Positions 3,341 to 14,267 of a stretch of DNA of 64,000 nucleotides are shown in pieces (within the stretch, counting starts at the first letter, position 1; the number at the start of each line of letters is the position of its first letter). Under the pieces are notes generated by a model. It saw only the letters and a list, made by a program, of their open reading frames with translations, did not search any database and was not told the DNA's origin. Source of the DNA: an uncultured candidatus Porisulfidus sp. (GTDB lineage: Bacteria; Pseudomonadota; Gammaproteobacteria; Poriferisulfidales; Poriferisulfidaceae). The stretch is taken from contig CBDASZ010000001.1 of NCBI GenBank assembly GCA_965199755.1, forward strand, positions 320,001-384,000, given 5' to 3'. A program made the translations under genes and the position numbers.

Positions 3341-3670
3341 TCAGGCGTCGCCGCAATCAAACCGGGTTTGCGTCATATCGCCGCTGGTGTCAACGTCCAC
3401 GCTTTGCACTTGCGGCATACGCGCGAGGATGTACGCGGCCATCATGGTGGCCATTTCCTGATTGTGATTTTCCATGGCGGTCAGCATGCGATCCGCGGCG
3501 ATCTGGCAGCGCTGCGCCTGATCGGGGCAGTCCACCCAGGTGCGTGACATCTGCCAGCCGCTGTCCATGTCCGCATCCATTTTCGCGAAGAACGCGCTGG
3601 CAGTCTGGACCATTTCATTCGGCACCTGCACCGGATGCGGCTCGCCGTTGAGGACGACTTGCAGGATCAT
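3341..3670 (-). CDS. Hypothetical protein (109 aa) translationally coupled to folC
   Basis: ATG at 3670 overlaps the folC stop (ATGA); MILQVVLNG...FFAKMDADMDSGWQMSRTWV. Confidence 0.75.
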   Translation of the reverse strand: MILQVVLNGEPHPVQVPNEMVQTASAFFAKMDADMDSGWQMSRTWVDCPDQAQRCQIAADRMLTAMENHNQEMATMMAAYILARMPQVQSVDVDTSGDMTQTRFDCGDA

Positions 3671-7835: not shown

Positions 7836-8445
7836 GACGCACCTCCTGAATGAATGCGCGCATGCGTTCAGGATCCTTGCGGCCCGGAGCGGATTCCACA
7901 CCACTGCTGACATCGACCGCCCAAGGCTGACATTGCGCGATCGCGTCGGCCACGCAGTCGGCGTCAAGCCCGCCGGCCAGAATCAGAGGTCTGGGGTCTT
8001 CGCTGGTGACGGCATCCCAGTCAAAGGCTTCGCCGCGACCGCCCGCTTCACCGGGAAGGTGGCTGTCGAGCAGGAAGCCTCGGGCGTTGGGATAGGTTTG
8101 CTGGGCCTGTTGCAGGGCTTCCGGGTTGTGCATAGAGACGGCGCGAATCCACGGCCCTCGGAAGTGCGCGCATAGCGTTGGGGATTCGTTGCCATGGTAC
8201 TGGACCAGATCGGGGCGCAGTTCCGCACTCAGGCGATCCAGAAAGTCCGTCTCCGGGTCCATCACGACCGCGCAGGTGCTAACGAATGGGGGCAGGACAT
8301 CGCGGATGGTGCAGGCCTGTTCAATGTCGAGGTGACGGGGACTGGGCGGATGAAAGACCAGCCCGATACAGTCGGCACCGGCGTCAGCGGCGTCGGCGGC
8401 GTCTTGCGGTGTGGTGATACCGCAGATCTTTACACGAACATTCAT
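7825..8445 (-). CDS. trpF: Phosphoribosylanthranilate isomerase
   Basis: [20 protein letters not shown]. Confidence 0.97.
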
Positions 8446-9242
8446 GAGTCAAAAGAGCAGGTGCGGTAGTCAGGAATCCACAGCGGCTGCGGAATGTTGT
8501 ATTCCGAAGGATAGTGTACGCGCACCAGATACAAACCATCGGGAGGTGCCGTGACACCGCCGGCGGTGCGGTCGCGCGCGTGCAGTAATTCGCTGATCCA
8601 TTTTATCGGTTGCTGGCCATCACCGACGCACATCAGCGAGCCAACCAGAATGCGAACCATGTTGTGCAGGAAGCTGTCGGCTTCCACATCCAGGTGCACA
8701 AATGGGCCATGCGCCGCGATATTGAGGCGGTGCAGGGTGCGTGTGGGATTCTTGGCCTGACATCCGGCGGCACGAAAACTGCTGAAATCATGCGTGCCGA
8801 GAAGGGCTTGCGCGGCCTCTTGCATGCGCGCGGCGTCAAGTGTCTTTGGGGTGCGGCTGACGCGGTGGGTCAGCAGGCCGGGAGCGCTGCGGCGCTGCAG
8901 CAGGATATACCGGTAGTGGCGTCTGATCGCCGTGTGGCGGGCATGAAAACTGTCTGGCACGGGCTGCACCCAGCCAATACTGATGGTCGGGGGGAGGTGC
9001 GACCCAGCCCCGCGCTGCCAAGCGTGTGGCGTGCGTTCAACTTCGGTGTCGAAATGAATGACTTGACCGGTCGCGTGCACACCGCTGTCGGTACGGCCGG
9101 CCGTGGTGATCTGAATGGGTTGATACGCGACTGCGGAGAATGCGGTTTCTACCGCGTCCTGAATGCTGGGCGCATGAGTTTGGCGCTGCCAGCCACTGAA
9201 GGCGGAGCCGTCGTATTCAACGCCACAGGCAAAGCGCGTCAT
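8442..9242 (-). CDS. truA: tRNA pseudouridine(38-40) synthase
   Basis: YDGSAFSGWQRQ, AGRTDSGVHATGQV, HDFSSFRA, FLHNMVR. Confidence 0.97.
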   Translation of the reverse strand: MTRFACGVEYDGSAFSGWQRQTHAPSIQDAVETAFSAVAYQPIQITTAGRTDSGVHATGQVIHFDTEVERTPHAWQRGAGSHLPPTISIGWVQPVPDSFHARHTAIRRHYRYILLQRRSAPGLLTHRVSRTPKTLDAARMQEAAQALLGTHDFSSFRAAGCQAKNPTRTLHRLNIAAHGPFVHLDVEADSFLHNMVRILVGSLMCVGDGQQPIKWISELLHARDRTAGGVTAPPDGLYLVRVHYPSEYNIPQPLWIPDYRTCSFDS

Positions 9243-9404
9243 GGTGTGGGTAATGGGGCAAGGTGTGTGGTGCCGGGACTGAGCAGGCTTTTCATGGGGC
9301 AGTCTTGAGATTTAATAGAAACTATACCAGCATGTATCTGGCATTAAGCACGGAGGTGTCGGGATCAAGACTGGGTGTATTTGAATGGGACTTATATACA
9401 TAAC

Positions 9405-9430
9405 TTGACAGAGCCTTGAAATGCTATACA
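9405..9430 (+). promoter_or_regulatory. Promoter-like elements upstream of the left porin cassette
   Basis: TTGACA at 9405-9410 and TGcTATACA (extended -10-like) at 9422-9430; the 14-bp spacing is non-canonical. Confidence 0.3.
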
Positions 9431-9465
9431 AAGCCTGAACAGGTGATTTTGATTTGTAAGATACA

Positions 9466-9561
9466 ATTTCTAATTGCTTTGGCGGTCGCGGTCGCTCCGT
9501 TGGCAGCCCAGGCAGAGACCATCAACCTCTACGGCTGGCAAAACCATTCGTGGGAGTTTGT
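9466..9561 (+). repeat. 96-bp perfect inverted repeat, left copy (partner 12633-12728)
   Basis: ATTTCTAATTGCTTTGGCGG...TGGGAGTTTGT is identical to the reverse complement of 12633-12728. Confidence 0.95.
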
Positions 9562-10964
9562 GGATATTGATGGTGGACGCAGCTTTGATCGCATTCAGTC
9601 GAATGCTGGGCAACATCGGCTTCAGCCGCCAGTGTCGACACCGGCATGAACGGCATCAAGGTCAACTTGCAGTGCGAGCAGTTCACGTTCTACAACCGCT
9701 TACAACCACTTCGCGGGCGGCACCGGCTGGTGCAACCGTAACTCGAAGATCGGTCTGGCTCACCCGCAGATGGGTGAGATCATGTTCGCCACCTGGCTGC
9801 TGCCCTACAACGAAGGCGTAGCGCAGTGGGTTGACCCGTTCTACGATGCCGGCGCGGACTCGCATACCAGCATCATGGGTTCCGTAGGGCCAACACCATC
9901 TTCTATAACAGGTTCTGGTCAGCAGCCTCCGCCTCATCTACAACAGGTTTGATGGTTCCGGACAATAGTTTTTGAGAGGATTTCCTGCACTACGAGCACT
10001 GGCTTCAATCGTCGCCAGGAGAACATCATTCAGTACTGGTCACCGAACTGGAACGGTTTTGTGTTCCGGTTTGCGTGGACGGTCGGCACCCGGGATGAAA
10101 CAGCCGCACCGGTCGGTGGTGGTGAAATCGACCCAGTAATTCGTTCCAGCAGTCTGGCCTACACCAATGGCCCCATGTGGCTGGCCGTCACGTGGCAGGA
10201 TCACGAAGACTGGACTGCAGCTTCAGTCGGTGAGATGGCTTCTTCGGATGCTGAAAGCTGGCGTCTTGCCGGTCGCTACATTGCCGATCTCGGTGATGGC
10301 ATGAGCGTTCAGATCTCGGCCATGTACGAAGATCTCGAATATGAGTTCAATGGAGTCAGCAACTTTGATGCTGCTATGGGTGCTTTCGGATATGGCAATT
10401 CGATGAGCTATACCGGCATTAGCCCATCTTCTCGTGCCGATGTCTTTCGTACTCAGCGTACAGGAAGTGGTTCCTCGAACTATTGTCTGGTGCCGATCGG
10501 TCTACTTGTGAGGGACACAGAGATTGCGGCAACGACATGGCGAAACAAAAACTGGAGTATGAACACCAGGTACTGAGGCTGGCATGGCAAAGTTGTATCG
10601 CTGGCACGTCGCAATCATGCGACCGCAGGCAGCAATGTAACGGTCGAACGCGAGGCCTGGATGATTTCCGGCAAGATCAAGTTCGGCGGTCCGGTTGACT
10701 TCCGCTTCTCCTATATGGACGCGGATGATCTGGAGGTTTCCTGCAGCGTTTGCTCAGGCGACTGGGATAACACTGCTGCCGATGCGTGGAACGTAGGCAT
10801 GTTCTACACCATGCCGGCCGGTACGGAACTGCGTCTGACCTATTCCGAAGTCGACAACGACGCAAACGGAACCTATGGTCAGGGTATTTCCGGCACGGGG
10901 CTTGGCTCAGCGCGGAGGTGAAGTTGAAATGTTCGCACTCGGTATCGTGCACTGGTTCGACTAA
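9467..10964 (+). pseudogene. Gram-negative porin cassette A (no ATG start; several frameshifts, possibly assembly artefacts)
   Basis: Signal peptide FLIALAVAVAPLAAQA then ETINLYG; RRQENIIQYWSPNWNGF; C-terminal GIVHWFD*; split over ORFs at 9416, 9474, 9770, 10061, 10483 and 10661. Confidence 0.85.
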
Positions 10965-10996
10965 TCCGATTAGTTGATCTATAACCGGCATACAAG

Positions 10997-11025
10997 ACAG
11001 GCGCCCTTCGGGGCGCCTGTTTTTT
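10997..11025 (+). terminator. Rho-independent terminator of porin cassette A
   Basis: ACAGGCGCCC-TTCG-GGGCGCCTGT followed by a T run. Confidence 0.92.
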
Positions 11026-11234
11026 ATGAGTTCGCTTGCTGATACCTTGGTACGAGCAGCACATATTTAAGATCAGAATATACGTTTGAATTGCAACAAG
11101 AAGGGGACAATTCCTTTTTTACTGCCTGTGCGGACTTCTTGAAAGAGAAGGGCCTATTTCTCCGCGCGAGCAGATATTTCTCAATAGCACAATTTTATGA
11201 GGTCTGAGCGTGTTCACCAATACGCTTGAACAAC

Positions 11235-11263
11235 AAAAAACAGGCGCCCCGAAGGGCGCCTGT
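11235..11263 (-). terminator. Rho-independent terminator of porin cassette B (identical to that of A)
   Basis: Reverse complement of the same ACAGGCGCCC-TTCG-GGGCGCCTGT hairpin plus T run. Confidence 0.92.
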
Positions 11264-11292
11264 CTTGTTAAGCCGGTTATTGATTGATGCAA

Positions 11293-12727
11293 TCAATCGA
11301 ACCAGTGCACGATGCCGAGAGCAAACATCTCAACCTTTAACACCTGCAGTACCCAGACCCGTACCGGAAACACCCTGACCGTAGGTTCCGTTTGCGTCGT
11401 TGTCAACTTCGGAATAGGTCAGACGCAGTTCCGTACCCGCCGGCATGGTGTAGAACATGCCTACATTCCACGCATCGGCAGCAGTGTTATCCCAGTCGCC
11501 TGAGCACGCGCTGCAGGAAACCTCCAAATCATCCGCATCCATATAGGAGAAGCGGAAGTCAACCGGACCGCCGAACTTGATCTTGCCGGAAATCATCCAG
11601 GCCTCGCGTTCGACCGTTACATTGCTGCCTGCGGTCGCATGATTGCGACGTGTAGCGTGTTCTCCGTTTTGAGCCGCCATCATATTCTTGAACTCAGTCT
11701 TTTGTTTCGCCATGGGGTTGCCGCAAAGTGCATCATCAGGTAGATCCTTCGGCACCAGACAACCCGTTTTGCCACTTATTGCTATGCGATAGTCGTAACT
11801 GGAACTTGAATCGTCGCTAACGCTGTCATAGCTCATCGAATTGCCATATCCGAAAGCACCCATCGCGGCATCAAAGTTGCTGACTCCATTGAACTCATAC
11901 TCAAGATCTTCGTACATGGCCGAGATCTGAACGCTCATGCCATCACCGAGGTCGGCAATGTAGCGACCGGCAAGACGCCAGCTTTCAGCATCAGAAGAAG
12001 CCATCTCACCGACTGAAGCTGCAGTCCAGTCTTCGTGATCCTGCCACGTGACGGCCATCCACATGCGGGCCATTGGTGTAGGCCAGACTGCTGGAACGAA
12101 TTACTGGGTCGATTTCACCATCACCGACCGGCTGTTTGAAACTTTCGTTTCGTCCCGGATAGCCGGGCGTCCAAGCAAACCGGAACACAAAACCGTTCCA
12201 GTTTGGTGACCAGTACTGAATGATGTTCTCCTGGCGACGGTTGATAACTGCCGCTTGTGCCTCTCGCGAATCCCGGATTGTAGTAGGCTTGACCAGAACC
12301 TGCGCCCACGCCTCCCATGATGCTGGTATGCGAGTCTGCACCGGCATCATAGAACGGGTCAACCCACTGCGCTACGCCTTCGTTGTAGGGCAGCAGCCAG
12401 GTGGCGAACATGAATTCACCCATCTGTGGATGAGCCAAACCGATCTTGGAGTTACGGTTGCACCAGCCGTGTTGCCGCCCGCGAAATCCGTGAAGCGGTT
12501 GTAGAAGGTGAACTGCTCGCACTGCAAGTTGACCTTGATGCCGTTCATGCCGGTGTCCATGCTGGCGGCTGAAGCCGATGTTGCCCAGCATTCGACTGAA
12601 TGCGGTCAAAGCTGCGTCCACCATCAACATCGACAAACTCCCACGAATGGTTTTGCCAGCCGTAGAGGTTGATGGTCTCTGCCTGGGCTGCCAACGGAGC
12701 GACCGCGACCGCCAAAGCAATTAGAAA
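11293..12727 (-). pseudogene. Gram-negative porin cassette B (no start codon; several frameshifts, possibly assembly artefacts)
   Basis: Inverted paralog of cassette A with the same signal peptide fragment and GIVHWFD* end; in-frame TGA 14 codons upstream with no ATG/GTG/TTG in between. Confidence 0.85.
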
Positions 12728-12728
12728 T
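12633..12728 (-). repeat. 96-bp perfect inverted repeat, right copy (partner 9466-9561)
   Basis: Direct base-by-base comparison. Confidence 0.95.
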
Positions 12729-12815
12729 CCGCTTCTACCTGCAACCAGAACCTGCTCAAAACTGGCCCATCATCCCTGTCGCAATTTGACTTTTCGAGAC
12801 TGCAAGAATTGAGAA

Positions 12816-14267
12816 TCAGCGCAGCGCGCGAAAACGCCGCAGGGCCTCATCTCTCCCGGCCGCGAGGTCCAGCACGGGGAAAGGATAGTCTCCTCCCAAA
12901 GTCACTTCGGCCTGCTGCAAAACAGGTGCTGGAGCGCGCCAAGGCTCATGGATATGCCGATCAGGCAGTTTCGCGAGTTCGGGTACCCAAGTGCGCACAT
13001 ACTTGCCTTCGGGGTCGAAGCGACTGCCTTGTCGGACAGGGCTGAACATCCGAAAATAAGGCGCAGCATCCACGCCGCAACCAGCAGTCCACTGCCAGCC
13101 CATGGTGTTGTTGGCCAGATCCGCGTCCAGCAGGGTGTCCCAGAACCAGCGGGCACCTTCCAGCCAATGCACCAGCCCGTTCTTAGTTAGCACTGAAGCC
13201 GTCAGCATGCGAATCCGATTGTGCATCCAGCCGGTGCGCCAGAGTTGCCGCATCCCGGCATCCACCAGTGGAATTCCGGTTTGACCCAGTGTCCATGCTG
13301 AGAAAAGTTCAGGGTTACGCTCCCAACTAAAAGCATTGAATCGCTCGTCGAACGGTTGTTCGGCAGTATGCGGCAGGTGGTACAGGATATTACTAGCGAA
13401 CTCCCGCCAGATTAACTGGCGCAAATAGGCATCCGCTCCATGAGTGACATCTATGGTATCTCTGCTATCGCAAGTCGCTTCCAGCACCTCGTGCCACACC
13501 TGTCGGGCAGACACTTCTCCGAAATGCAAGTGTGGTGACAGACCCGACACACCGTCTTCATAAGGGAGATCGCGTCTGCTGCCGTATTCAGCGATTGCGT
13601 CATCACCAAGGAAATCGCGCAACCTAACCATGGCCGCCTTTTCTCCCGGTTGCCAGTACTCAAGGAATTCGCGATGCCAGTTAAGCGGTGACATCAGACC
13701 CAGTTCCTCCAGAGGAACGGAGCGAACCCCCTGAGGCAATGGTGGGAGGGCATCAGGGCTCGCCGCAGGGCGCGCCTCCGGGCCAGTCAGCAGGTAGCGC
13801 TTGTAGAACGGGGTGAAGACCCGATAAATGCCGCCGTCATCCTTCAGCACAGTCCCCGGTTCACGCAGCAAGGAGCCGGGACAAGTACGCACTTCCGCAC
13901 CCGCGTCGACCAATGCTTTCTCAACAGTCTCATCCCGGGCCCGAATGACAGGTTCATACCGCCGATTCCAGCACACCAGCGCAGCCTTGTTTTCACGCAC
14001 AACTTCCGCCAGCACTTCCTGACTGGATCCCATACGAATCACCAGGCCCGATCCCTTTTCCTGAAGCGTCATGCTCAGAGATGCGAGACTGCGGTGCAAC
14101 CACCATTTTGAGGCGGCTCCAGGCTGCCACGGAGCTTCTTCATCGGGCGCGTGAATGTAGAGAGGAATGACCCGCTCAGCACGATCCAGAGCCTCCAGCA
14201 GCGCCGGGTTGTCAGCGAGTCGAAGGTCGCGACGGAACCAGATAATAGCCGTGTGATACCTAGACAA
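12816..14267 (-). CDS. phrB: Deoxyribodipyrimidine photolyase (class I CPD)
   Basis: WFRRDLRLADNPAL, SGLSPHLHFGEVS, WREF, GWMHNRIRM, DADLANN..GWQW; TTG start with GAGGAG RBS. Confidence 0.95.
   Translation of the reverse strand: MSRYHTAIIWFRRDLRLADNPALLEALDRAERVIPLYIHAPDEEAPWQPGAASKWWLHRSLASLSMTLQEKGSGLVIRMGSSQEVLAEVVRENKAALVCWNRRYEPVIRARDETVEKALVDAGAEVRTCPGSLLREPGTVLKDDGGIYRVFTPFYKRYLLTGPEARPAASPDALPPLPQGVRSVPLEELGLMSPLNWHREFLEYWQPGEKAAMVRLRDFLGDDAIAEYGSRRDLPYEDGVSGLSPHLHFGEVSARQVWHEVLEATCDSRDTIDVTHGADAYLRQLIWREFASNILYHLPHTAEQPFDERFNAFSWERNPELFSAWTLGQTGIPLVDAGMRQLWRTGWMHNRIRMLTASVLTKNGLVHWLEGARWFWDTLLDADLANNTMGWQWTAGCGVDAAPYFRMFSPVRQGSRFDPEGKYVRTWVPELAKLPDRHIHEPWRAPAPVLQQAEVTLGGDYPFPVLDLAAGRDEALRRFRALR

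Follow-up and report, generated by a model that had tools for sequence, protein, structure and literature searches.

In shufflons and in the Mycoplasma vsa, vsp and vpma loci, one promoter and start site serves several start-less cassettes, which tyrosine recombinases (Rci, HvsR and Xer1) join to it by inverting DNA at a short site within the 5' coding sequence. In Moraxella lacunata and Moraxella bovis, the pilin tfpQ/tfpI segment is inverted by the recombinase Piv. Work published in 2024 identified bridge RNAs, or seek RNAs, as what directs the selfish elements IS110/IS1111 to their targets, and these RNAs are in development for genome editing. Here we describe a porin locus in a 64,000-nt stretch of DNA (the window; C1:320001-384000, contig CBDASZ010000001.1 of assembly GCA_965199755.1) from an uncultured Candidatus Porisulfidus sp., in which two porin cassettes, neither preceded by an in-frame ATG, lie tail-to-tail with inverted copies of a 9-nt core at their 5' ends. 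The same genome holds one IS110-family recombinase gene followed by a structured RNA whose internal loop matches the two strands of this core, and we think it likely that a domesticated bridge-RNA-guided invertase switches the porin cassettes, the porin block of the window being the minimal, two-cassette form of a family-wide switch.

Like the shufflons and the vsa, vsp and vpma loci, the Porisulfidus porin loci combine an expression site with start-less cassettes; they differ in the candidate enzyme, here a DEDD-type recombinase that comes with an RNA. Piv belongs to the DEDD recombinases related to IS110 and groups with the short IS492/IS621-type enzymes of 315-330 amino acids (PMC11187229). 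As with Moraxella Piv, we propose an IS110-family recombinase that is used by its host, and the segment to be inverted is bounded within the 5' coding sequences of alternative genes for surface proteins; unlike Piv, the Porisulfidus enzyme has ~370-390 amino acids, belongs to another subfamily and is accompanied by a downstream RNA, and the genes are porins, not pilins, with many cassettes in relatives. The nearest porin-type precedent is Omp1 of Dichelobacter nodosus, which has four linked outer-membrane protein genes and whose phase and antigenic variation is proposed to result from site-specific inversions (Moses et al. 1995, as cited in PMC4196234). The likeness, which lies in linked alternative major outer-membrane proteins and a proposed inversion, is one of description only, and D. 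nodosus is an animal pathogen whereas Porisulfidus is a sponge symbiont.

With the IS110/IS1111 bridge RNA and seekRNA systems (IS621, ISEc11; Durrant et al. 2024, PMC11208160; Siddiquee et al. 2024, PMC11187229) the Porisulfidus module shares a DEDD enzyme with PF01548 and PF02371 domains and the motif GL-P----SG. In IS1111-type elements the RNA lies downstream of the gene, as does the structured RNA of Porisulfidus (PMC11187229). Unlike IS110/IS1111 elements, the Porisulfidus module is single-copy, lacks element ends, is inherited with the genus and has one conserved guide loop; its partner sites are identical, of the target type and inverted at the 5' ends of host genes, and the reaction proposed is a reversible inversion, not an insertion. 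The literature that we searched held no description of a natural RNA-guided inversion switch and no report of a guide RNA for Piv, and the available portions of the Porisulfidus literature held nothing on porins. What appears to be new, judged from sequence, is the combination of two known kinds of system, multiple-inversion surface variation and bridge-RNA recombination.

Two Tail-to-Tail Porin Cassettes Begin at the Same Base

The initial annotation had described two tail-to-tail porin paralogs whose homology starts at one common base inside the signal peptide. A MAFFT alignment of 9380-11030 (+) with 11230-12800 (-) agrees, placing the boundary at 9466 and 12728: before A-TTT-CTA-ATT-GCT the copies show no relatedness, and after it there are 96 identical columns. 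These are the arms of a perfect 96-bp inverted repeat (9466-9561 on the plus strand, the reverse complement of 12633-12728 on the minus strand; mismatches begin at 9562) that covers the signal peptide and first mature residues. An inverted-repeat search extends it to a longer inverted repeat at 9466-9701/12493-12728 (236 nt, 97%), followed by six more collinear inverted blocks. Site L, with the core ATTTCTAAT, lies at 9466-9474 (+), and the predicted crossover dinucleotide CT at 9470-9471 (from the junction alignment and the RNA loop match); a core search places site R, with the same core, at 12720-12728 (-), its CT at 12724-12723. Homology was also found to run to the terminators, as had been claimed, with 90% identity overall and hairpins at 10992-11025 (+, cassette A) and 11235-11268 (-, cassette B) that are 34 nt long and 100% complementary. 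The inverted-repeat search gave both hairpins, and the terminator scan reported only the minus-strand twin; the spacer between them occupies 11026-11234.

Cassette A (9449-10964, +; open reading frame (ORF) list, alignment and profile search) and cassette B (11293-12728, -; ORF list and alignment) both encode Porin_4 proteins with frame errors as assembled, two of them common to A and B and none mentioned in the initial annotation. The variable loops of A lie at ~9886-10000 and ~10405-10600, and those of B are unlike them. Membership in Porin_4 (PF13609) was read from the intact orthologue P0001, a public protein (75.5 bits), and from P0055 (61.5 bits; cut-off 27), the window fragment 10661-10921 by itself scoring 19.4 bits against the same cut-off.

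What precedes the core differs on the two sides. On the left (9243-9465, +), the in-frame upstream candidates for a start are limited to TTG 9416, GTG 9443 and TTG 9449, with no ATG, as had been noted. The Shine-Dalgarno-like stretch AGGTGAT occupies 9441-9447, ahead of TTG 9449, from which ATT TGT AAG ATA CA continues into the core without a change of frame, the leader being MICKIQ|FLIA...; gene callers accept a TTG 9449-type start, as in P0001. We regard this as the candidate expression flank. The right flank (12729-12815, -), 87 nt from the stop codon of a phrB-like gene to site R, appears to be silent: between the in-frame TGA and the core of cassette B there is no ATG, GTG or TTG (TGA-TGG-GCC-AGT-TTT-GAG-CAG-GTT-CTG-GTT-GCA-GGT-AGA-AGC-GG|A), which bears out the earlier description of a start-less copy. 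Neither flank has a match in 40 relatives. The fixed neighbours are a truA-like gene of 266 amino acids on the left (8442-9242, -; an ORF named from reading its translation, with no family search) and, co-directional with cassette B, a photolyase-like gene of 483 amino acids on the right (12816-14267, -; also named from its translation).

Genome-wide, a blastn search with the 236-nt arm and a fuzzy search with its first 20-40 nt returned these two copies only, and tblastn with three fragments found no third porin copy in the 1.39-Mb genome. A role for the two copies as silent donors to some other expression locus can be rejected, since the genome holds neither a third porin copy nor a third extended-core site. 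The bare 9-nt core has four copies in this genome besides the porin sites, with ~3 expected in all. Two of these are inverted (C2:344636 (-) and C2:345619 (+); positions 3636 and 4619 of locus L089) at the ends of a methyltransferase/HNH-like gene of 340 amino acids, around which no extended inverted repeat was found; this pair is probably due to chance.

The Core and the Start-less Layout Recur in Relatives

We compared the porin 5' junctions of the window with those of five complete relatives (G001-G005). Rather than the ordinary, independently started porin genes that the initial annotation had named as counter-evidence, these genomes show the start-less architecture at larger scale, with 3-10 intact paralogs each, mostly in convergent pairs as in the window (five pairs in G001). 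The core ATTTCTAAT is present at 29/29 porin 5' junctions in the six genomes. Between genomes, identity is 1.00 across the 9-nt core and 0.16-0.7 at most neighbouring positions; the core and scattered codon positions are invariant, and the other signal-peptide coding sequence differs. Within genomes, identity rises from ~0.3-0.5 upstream of the core to 0.75-1.0 downstream of it. The upstream flanks are mutually unrelated, often with a stop codon just before the core, and only a few carry AGGAG-N-ATGAAAAAACC in frame (2/10 in G001, 1/4 in G002, 1/6 in G003, 1/4 in G004 and 1/3 in G005). Paralog lengths range from 435 to 794 amino acids, and the loops differ.

The same pattern is visible in databases. 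Among the best 120 homologues, 100 have the N-terminal motif, of which 25 begin MKKP-like, 65 were called from an internal codon past FLI and 10 begin otherwise; from these start calls, start-less cassettes are the rule in this porin family. Nearly all porin homologues are in metagenome-assembled genomes labelled Candidatus Porisulfidus or sponge-derived Gammaproteobacteria.

Two further features of the flanks were seen in relatives. At G002 C1:1808315 (-) (L058) and G005 C1:1582865 (-) (L057) the flank sequence is ATGAAAAACC, whose A-run counts five letters, not six, and shifts the ATG out of frame with the cassette; such flanks may have died as expression sites, or the A-run may add a further, second layer of phase variation by slipped-strand mispairing. 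In the G001 cluster (C1:190000-270000; L053-L056) non-coding flank types repeat beside different cassettes and in both orientations (one type three times, two types twice each, and two ATG flanks), a recurrence that would be expected as the trace of past large inversions and segmental duplications in the cluster.

One IS110-Family Recombinase Per Genome

The initial annotation had advised looking for an unlinked recombinase, and one Piv/IS110-family gene was found in the genome, unlinked to the porins (C4 13121-14293, -; 390 amino acids; among housekeeping genes). The protein matches PF01548, the RuvC-like DEDD domain (58.3 bits, cut-off 29), and PF02371, the C-terminal transposase domain (63.6 bits, cut-off 21.3). 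Orthologues with 65-74% identity, single copy in each case, are present in 13/16 genomes of the genus. D25, E75, D108 and D111, which align with the IS621 chain, are unchanged in the 13 orthologues, as are G270-L-V-P273...S278-G279, corresponding to the conserved G--P----SG motif of IS110/IS1111-family recombinases (PMC11187229). A profile of the 13 sequences reaches the structures of IS621 (8wt6, E 3.9e-4) and ISCro4 (9t56, E 0.0056); the single sequence had no match among PDB sequences by phmmer.

The gene lies inside the porin cluster in G001, G002, G004 and G005, and in 10/12 relatives having the recombinase the gene has a CATTTCTAAT site next to it or is enclosed by a divergent pair of such sites. 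This 10-mer occurs 55 times in the 16 genomes, compared to 10 times for the backwards control. As to other classes of enzyme, our genome has 0 matches to the serine recombinase family PF00239 and two XerC/D-like tyrosine recombinases (PF00589; C1:57698 and C1:271255), far from the porin locus; relatives likewise have two tyrosine recombinases each, outside the porin clusters.

The Downstream RNA Carries Both Strands of the Porin Core

Directly 3' of the recombinase stop codon, a conserved block of ~240 nt is present in 13/13 genomes (C4 12875-13125, -, in our genome). RNAalifold folded it into 65 pairs that make up two branches and a closing stem of 29 pairs, with 96.1% of the cells paired in the alignment. 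In 28 pairs both sides change, compared to 10.8 ± 2.3 in shuffles (0/500 reach 28) and to 2-8 pairs when the partners are slid. A blastn search with the RNA region was too insensitive (4/15 relatives) and was replaced by the protein search and a covariance model, which found the RNA in the same 13/53 genomes of the order, with a single sense-strand copy in each (plus a second, divergent copy in G011), and in none of the 37 genomes of other families in the order. Rfam 15 gave no family at E<=1 for three of these loci.

Branch 1 holds a symmetric 10x10 internal loop with GGCAUUUCUA as its 5' strand and GCAAUUAGAC as its 3' strand (GCAGUUAGAG in our genome). The loop letters CAUUUCUA and AAUUAGA are the two strands of the porin core: the left guide is (C)AUUUCUA in top-strand sense, the right guide is complementary to TCTAAT(TGC), and the two overlap on TCTA, which contains the CT. 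Bridge RNAs have a target-binding loop whose left and right guides pair with the bottom and the top strand, respectively, and both include the core dinucleotide (PMC11208160); the Porisulfidus loop is alike in that its 5' strand is left-top sense, its 3' strand is complementary to the right top, and the CT core is in both. In our own genome's RNA the stems are kept through compensatory changes and the left guide is unchanged.

G011 has a second recombinase (C39:318-1397, -; 50% identity) with its own RNA (C39:27-255, -; 70 bits; L124). The loop of this RNA, GGCGUUUCUU/UCAAGAGA, has other letters, and a different target is expected; its predicted 11-nt target gave 2 exact matches, and 31 at <=1 mismatch compared to 21 for the backwards control, with no telling context.

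A Complete Genome Without the Enzyme Has Ordinary Porin Genes

G010, a single contig from the same genus, is the one complete genome with neither a PF01548 gene nor the RNA. Its four porins form two convergent pairs, each porin reading TAAATGAAAAAAACGTCCCTAATC with its own ATG; here homology extends upstream of the ATG, and the left half-site is mutated to ACGTCCCTAAT. The two CATTTCTAAT matches of this genome are located elsewhere. G010 is a natural control for the enzyme and RNA going together with the start-less layout.

Many Relatives Beyond the Genus Are Insertion Sequences That Share the RNA

A profile search over one genome per species returned 76 relatives of the recombinase outside the genus, with 41-55% identity. 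Many of them are multicopy or lie on ~1.5 kb contigs, and we therefore regard them as working insertion sequences. The covariance model detected the RNA downstream of the gene at 57/76 of these loci, in other phyla. In the relatives, the loop has the form G-N6-CUA/N4-UAGA-NN, with 46 distinct 5' strands among 62 copies; the CUA end is present in 52, UAGA in 49 and both in 46. We then searched 42 non-redundant copies for the reverse complement of N6+CU within 260 nt after the RNA. The copy's own guide was matched with <=1 mismatch in 18/42 and with 0 mismatches in 5/42, compared to 10.9% and 1.0%, respectively, for non-self guides (n = 1696). The guide matches listed directly follow the conserved element end CATATC, that is, they lie in the flank. 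Since the guides match in the elements' own flanks, the loop is the insertion-sequence family's target-binding loop, and its variable letters in Porisulfidus spell the porin core. A check by hand of the targets in multicopy groups was clear for Acidobacteriota, partial for an alphaproteobacterial group and unclear for Azophilus, where the copies are in tandem.

The Porisulfidus module departs from these elements. It is single copy per genome; the element-end motif, present in 49/55 insertion-sequence copies, was found in a looser version in 1/13 Porisulfidus modules at most; and the sites flanking the module are complete and inverted, not split half-sites. The stretch corresponding to the donor guide AUAUCAG of the Acidobacteriota element differs among the 13 Porisulfidus RNAs both in length and in sequence (columns 187-208). 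On balance we favor the view that Porisulfidus carries a domesticated element without ends or donor guide, with one target loop on a core of ~10 nt, in which one RNA-enzyme pair could shuffle up to ten porins among one or two expression flanks.

As a separate observation, the subfamily and its downstream RNA are widespread in Proteobacteria, Acidobacteriota, Nitrospirota, Thermodesulfobacteriota and others (L148-L227). The right end of these insertion sequences, ...CATATC-AG, is conserved, and their RNA is without a model in Rfam 15.

Proposed Switch and Alternative Explanations

In the switch that we propose, each cassette would begin at the core ATTT-CT-AAT inside the signal-peptide codons for (P)FLI, and everything upstream would be fixed flank. 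The RNA loop would guide the recombinase to the inverted sites at 9466 and 12728, and exchange at CT (9470-9471/12724-12723) would flip the 3.26-kb block. The left flank (TTG, leader MICKIQ) would then join either A or B, and the remaining cassette would lie unexpressed behind the photolyase gene. In the assembled orientation the expressed cassette would be A and the silent one B; after inversion B would gain the same leader. The ATTT ahead of CT is on the flank side and is nevertheless in every flank; because the left guide requires it there, homology starts four bases before the predicted crossover. The initial annotation had drawn the exchange along the 96-bp repeat. Its inversion switch gains from the anatomy of the locus, the enzyme, the guide-like RNA and the start-less relatives; its route does not stand, the crossover being probably site-specific at CT inside ATTTCTAAT and not homologous along the repeat. 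We infer that the RNA is produced and guides the enzyme to the porin core, that inversion takes place in this strain and that expression is from the left flank. The purpose would probably be variation of the surface-exposed porin loops against phages or host recognition.

Several observations weigh against this proposal. At the locus itself, neither porin copy is open as assembled (ORF fragments of 77-247 amino acids, with repeated frame changes and in-frame stops); the canonical ribosome-binding site and ATG are missing on both sides of the window block, the left offering the TTG candidate only; and a promoter scan found no sigma-70 consensus upstream of cassette A. The flipped orientation was not seen: no strand-changing joint was found at the 5' repeats among 56 and 101 short reads, the contigs stopping 28-30 nt into the repeat; related genomes held no copy of the window block in the other orientation; and exact scans of metagenome contigs with the two flank junctions yielded 0 matches. 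The recombinase is away from the porins in our genome and in G003, and G015 and G016 have core-bearing start-less cassettes, yet no orthologue or RNA was found in these fragmented assemblies (120 and 30 contigs, respectively). As for the RNA, the C before ATTT, a partner of the guide, is missing at both window sites, and our right guide makes one G-T wobble. Across species, the inner AU of the right guide always fits the sites; its outer two letters fit some sites of G002 and G004 and not those of G001, G003 and G005, and genomes with a CUAU right guide have ATCG or ATCC sites. Finally, the RNAalifold structure holds no second conserved internal loop that could be a donor guide, and known bridge RNAs use two.

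One alternative dispenses with a dedicated enzyme: RecA-dependent gene conversion would hold the paralogs similar, any inversion would arise through homologous recombination along the 96-236-bp repeats, and the recombinase and RNA would be bystanders. Long, near-identical inverted repeats do exist here, the homogenisation downstream of the core within genomes (0.75-1.0) shows that conversion occurs, and the recombinase is unlinked in our genome. Homologous exchange nevertheless leaves unexplained why 29/29 junctions with many unrelated flanks share the same boundary base, and why a 9-nt core is invariant between species amid diverging signal-peptide codons; the RNA loop also matches exactly this core, and in G010 the enzyme and the start-less layout are absent together. 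We consider this explanation unlikely.

It seems similarly improbable that the locus is a dead relic, in which A and B are true pseudogenes, the canonical flank for expression has disappeared and inversion has ceased. This would fit the frameshifts in both copies as assembled; the two cassettes compared to 3-10 in relatives, in the smallest genome of the genus (1.39 Mb); and the lack of a ATGAAAAAACC start on either flank and of a promoter by scan. We checked the frames over 9000-13200 in the Logan contig sets X5 and X1, from two studies, and in the Illumina runs X8 and X9 (150-nt reads, depth ~2-4x; 56 and 101 reads). The X5 contigs show zero differences to both unique flanks, and the same strain is therefore present in the X5 run. 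Copy A has extra letters at 9607 (1 nt), 9623 (1 nt), 9691 (10 nt) and 10912 (1 nt). Among the matches listed, here and for the following counts, each X5 or X1 contig over these four places lacks the extra letters, as do 2/3 X8 reads at 9607 and 9623 and 9/9 X9 reads at 10912. In copy B, a 1-nt deletion at 11334/11335 is supported by an X5 contig and by one X1 contig (depth 20.8 of 26.8), by 2/6 and 3/5 X9 reads and by 0/7 and 0/5 X8 reads. Five places of frame error are thus contradicted by independent contigs or reads; the remaining errors of copy B, in stretches that contigs and reads leave uncovered, count against the switch. The corrected frame reads ...SNAGNIGFAASVDTG..., matching the public protein P0001, which is intact at 499 amino acids, is encoded on a 9998-bp contig and has the N-terminus MICKIQFLIALAVAVAPLAAQA, that is, the MICKIQ leader of TTG 9449 in the window. 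Moreover, the recombinase frame is open with complete catalytic residues, and our genome's RNA keeps its stems by compensatory change and its left guide unchanged. The poor consensus is confined to the porin block 9466-12728 (indels and allele blends), the flanks being reproduced exactly by independent contigs; the faulty stretches look like blends of two alleles, and the frame errors most likely arose in the consensus because the region is heterogeneous and repeated.

Very unlikely, in our judgement, is a still selfish insertion sequence that targets the porin 5' region and leaves start-less copies as collateral damage. Its nearest kin outside the genus are indeed multicopy insertion sequences with the same RNA, and in most relatives the module sits amid porin genes. 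It is present at one copy per genome, however, with the element-end motif lost, with bracketing sites that are complete and inverted rather than split and with a variable donor-guide stretch, and in our genome it lies among housekeeping genes with no core nearby.

It is scarcely credible that the inverted duplication was made by the assembly from one porin gene: the very poor consensus and chimeric indels within the block and the excess word depth of the shared 5' part (6-10x the flanks) would suit it, but contigs of two independent studies enter the repeat from each unique flank (9000-9493/9495 and 12699/12701-13200), contigs of X1 and X5 reproduce the B-specific stretch 11623-11857 with no difference, and relatives assembled as single chromosomes carry the same convergent pairs.

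If a domesticated, RNA-guided invertase does act here, it would be the first natural case in which bridge-RNA-guided recombination serves a host, and cells would have co-opted bridge-RNA chemistry for programmed variation. Two identical target-type sites may then recombine without a donor loop. Other Piv-like invertases may also be RNA-guided, and the decades-old question of how Piv finds its sites would gain a testable answer. For the sponge symbiosis, the major porin would be a surface molecule under strong diversifying pressure, probably from phage attack or host recognition. For genome curation, the switch would account for porins called without proper signal peptides and for the bad assembly at this locus.

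Genome Setting and Minor Observations

The genome that contains the window comprises four contigs and 1.389 Mb (58% G+C, 98.9% complete), and the runs that contain the stretch are sponge metagenomes. In X5 and X1, the shared 5' part at 9423-9563 reaches a word depth that suggests many related cassettes or strains in the samples. The sole strand-changing joint, 11223/11291, comes from one X1 contig (depth 6) and lies between the terminators. Contigs C3 and C4 start with the same glnS-gloB stretch (1-2800 in each) in opposite orientation and with few differences, and seem to overlap end to end rather than to be separate replicons. C4, which carries the recombinase and its RNA, holds pnp, uvrC, fabH, plsX, kdsA, pyrG and tilS, housekeeping genes that we named from reading their translations.

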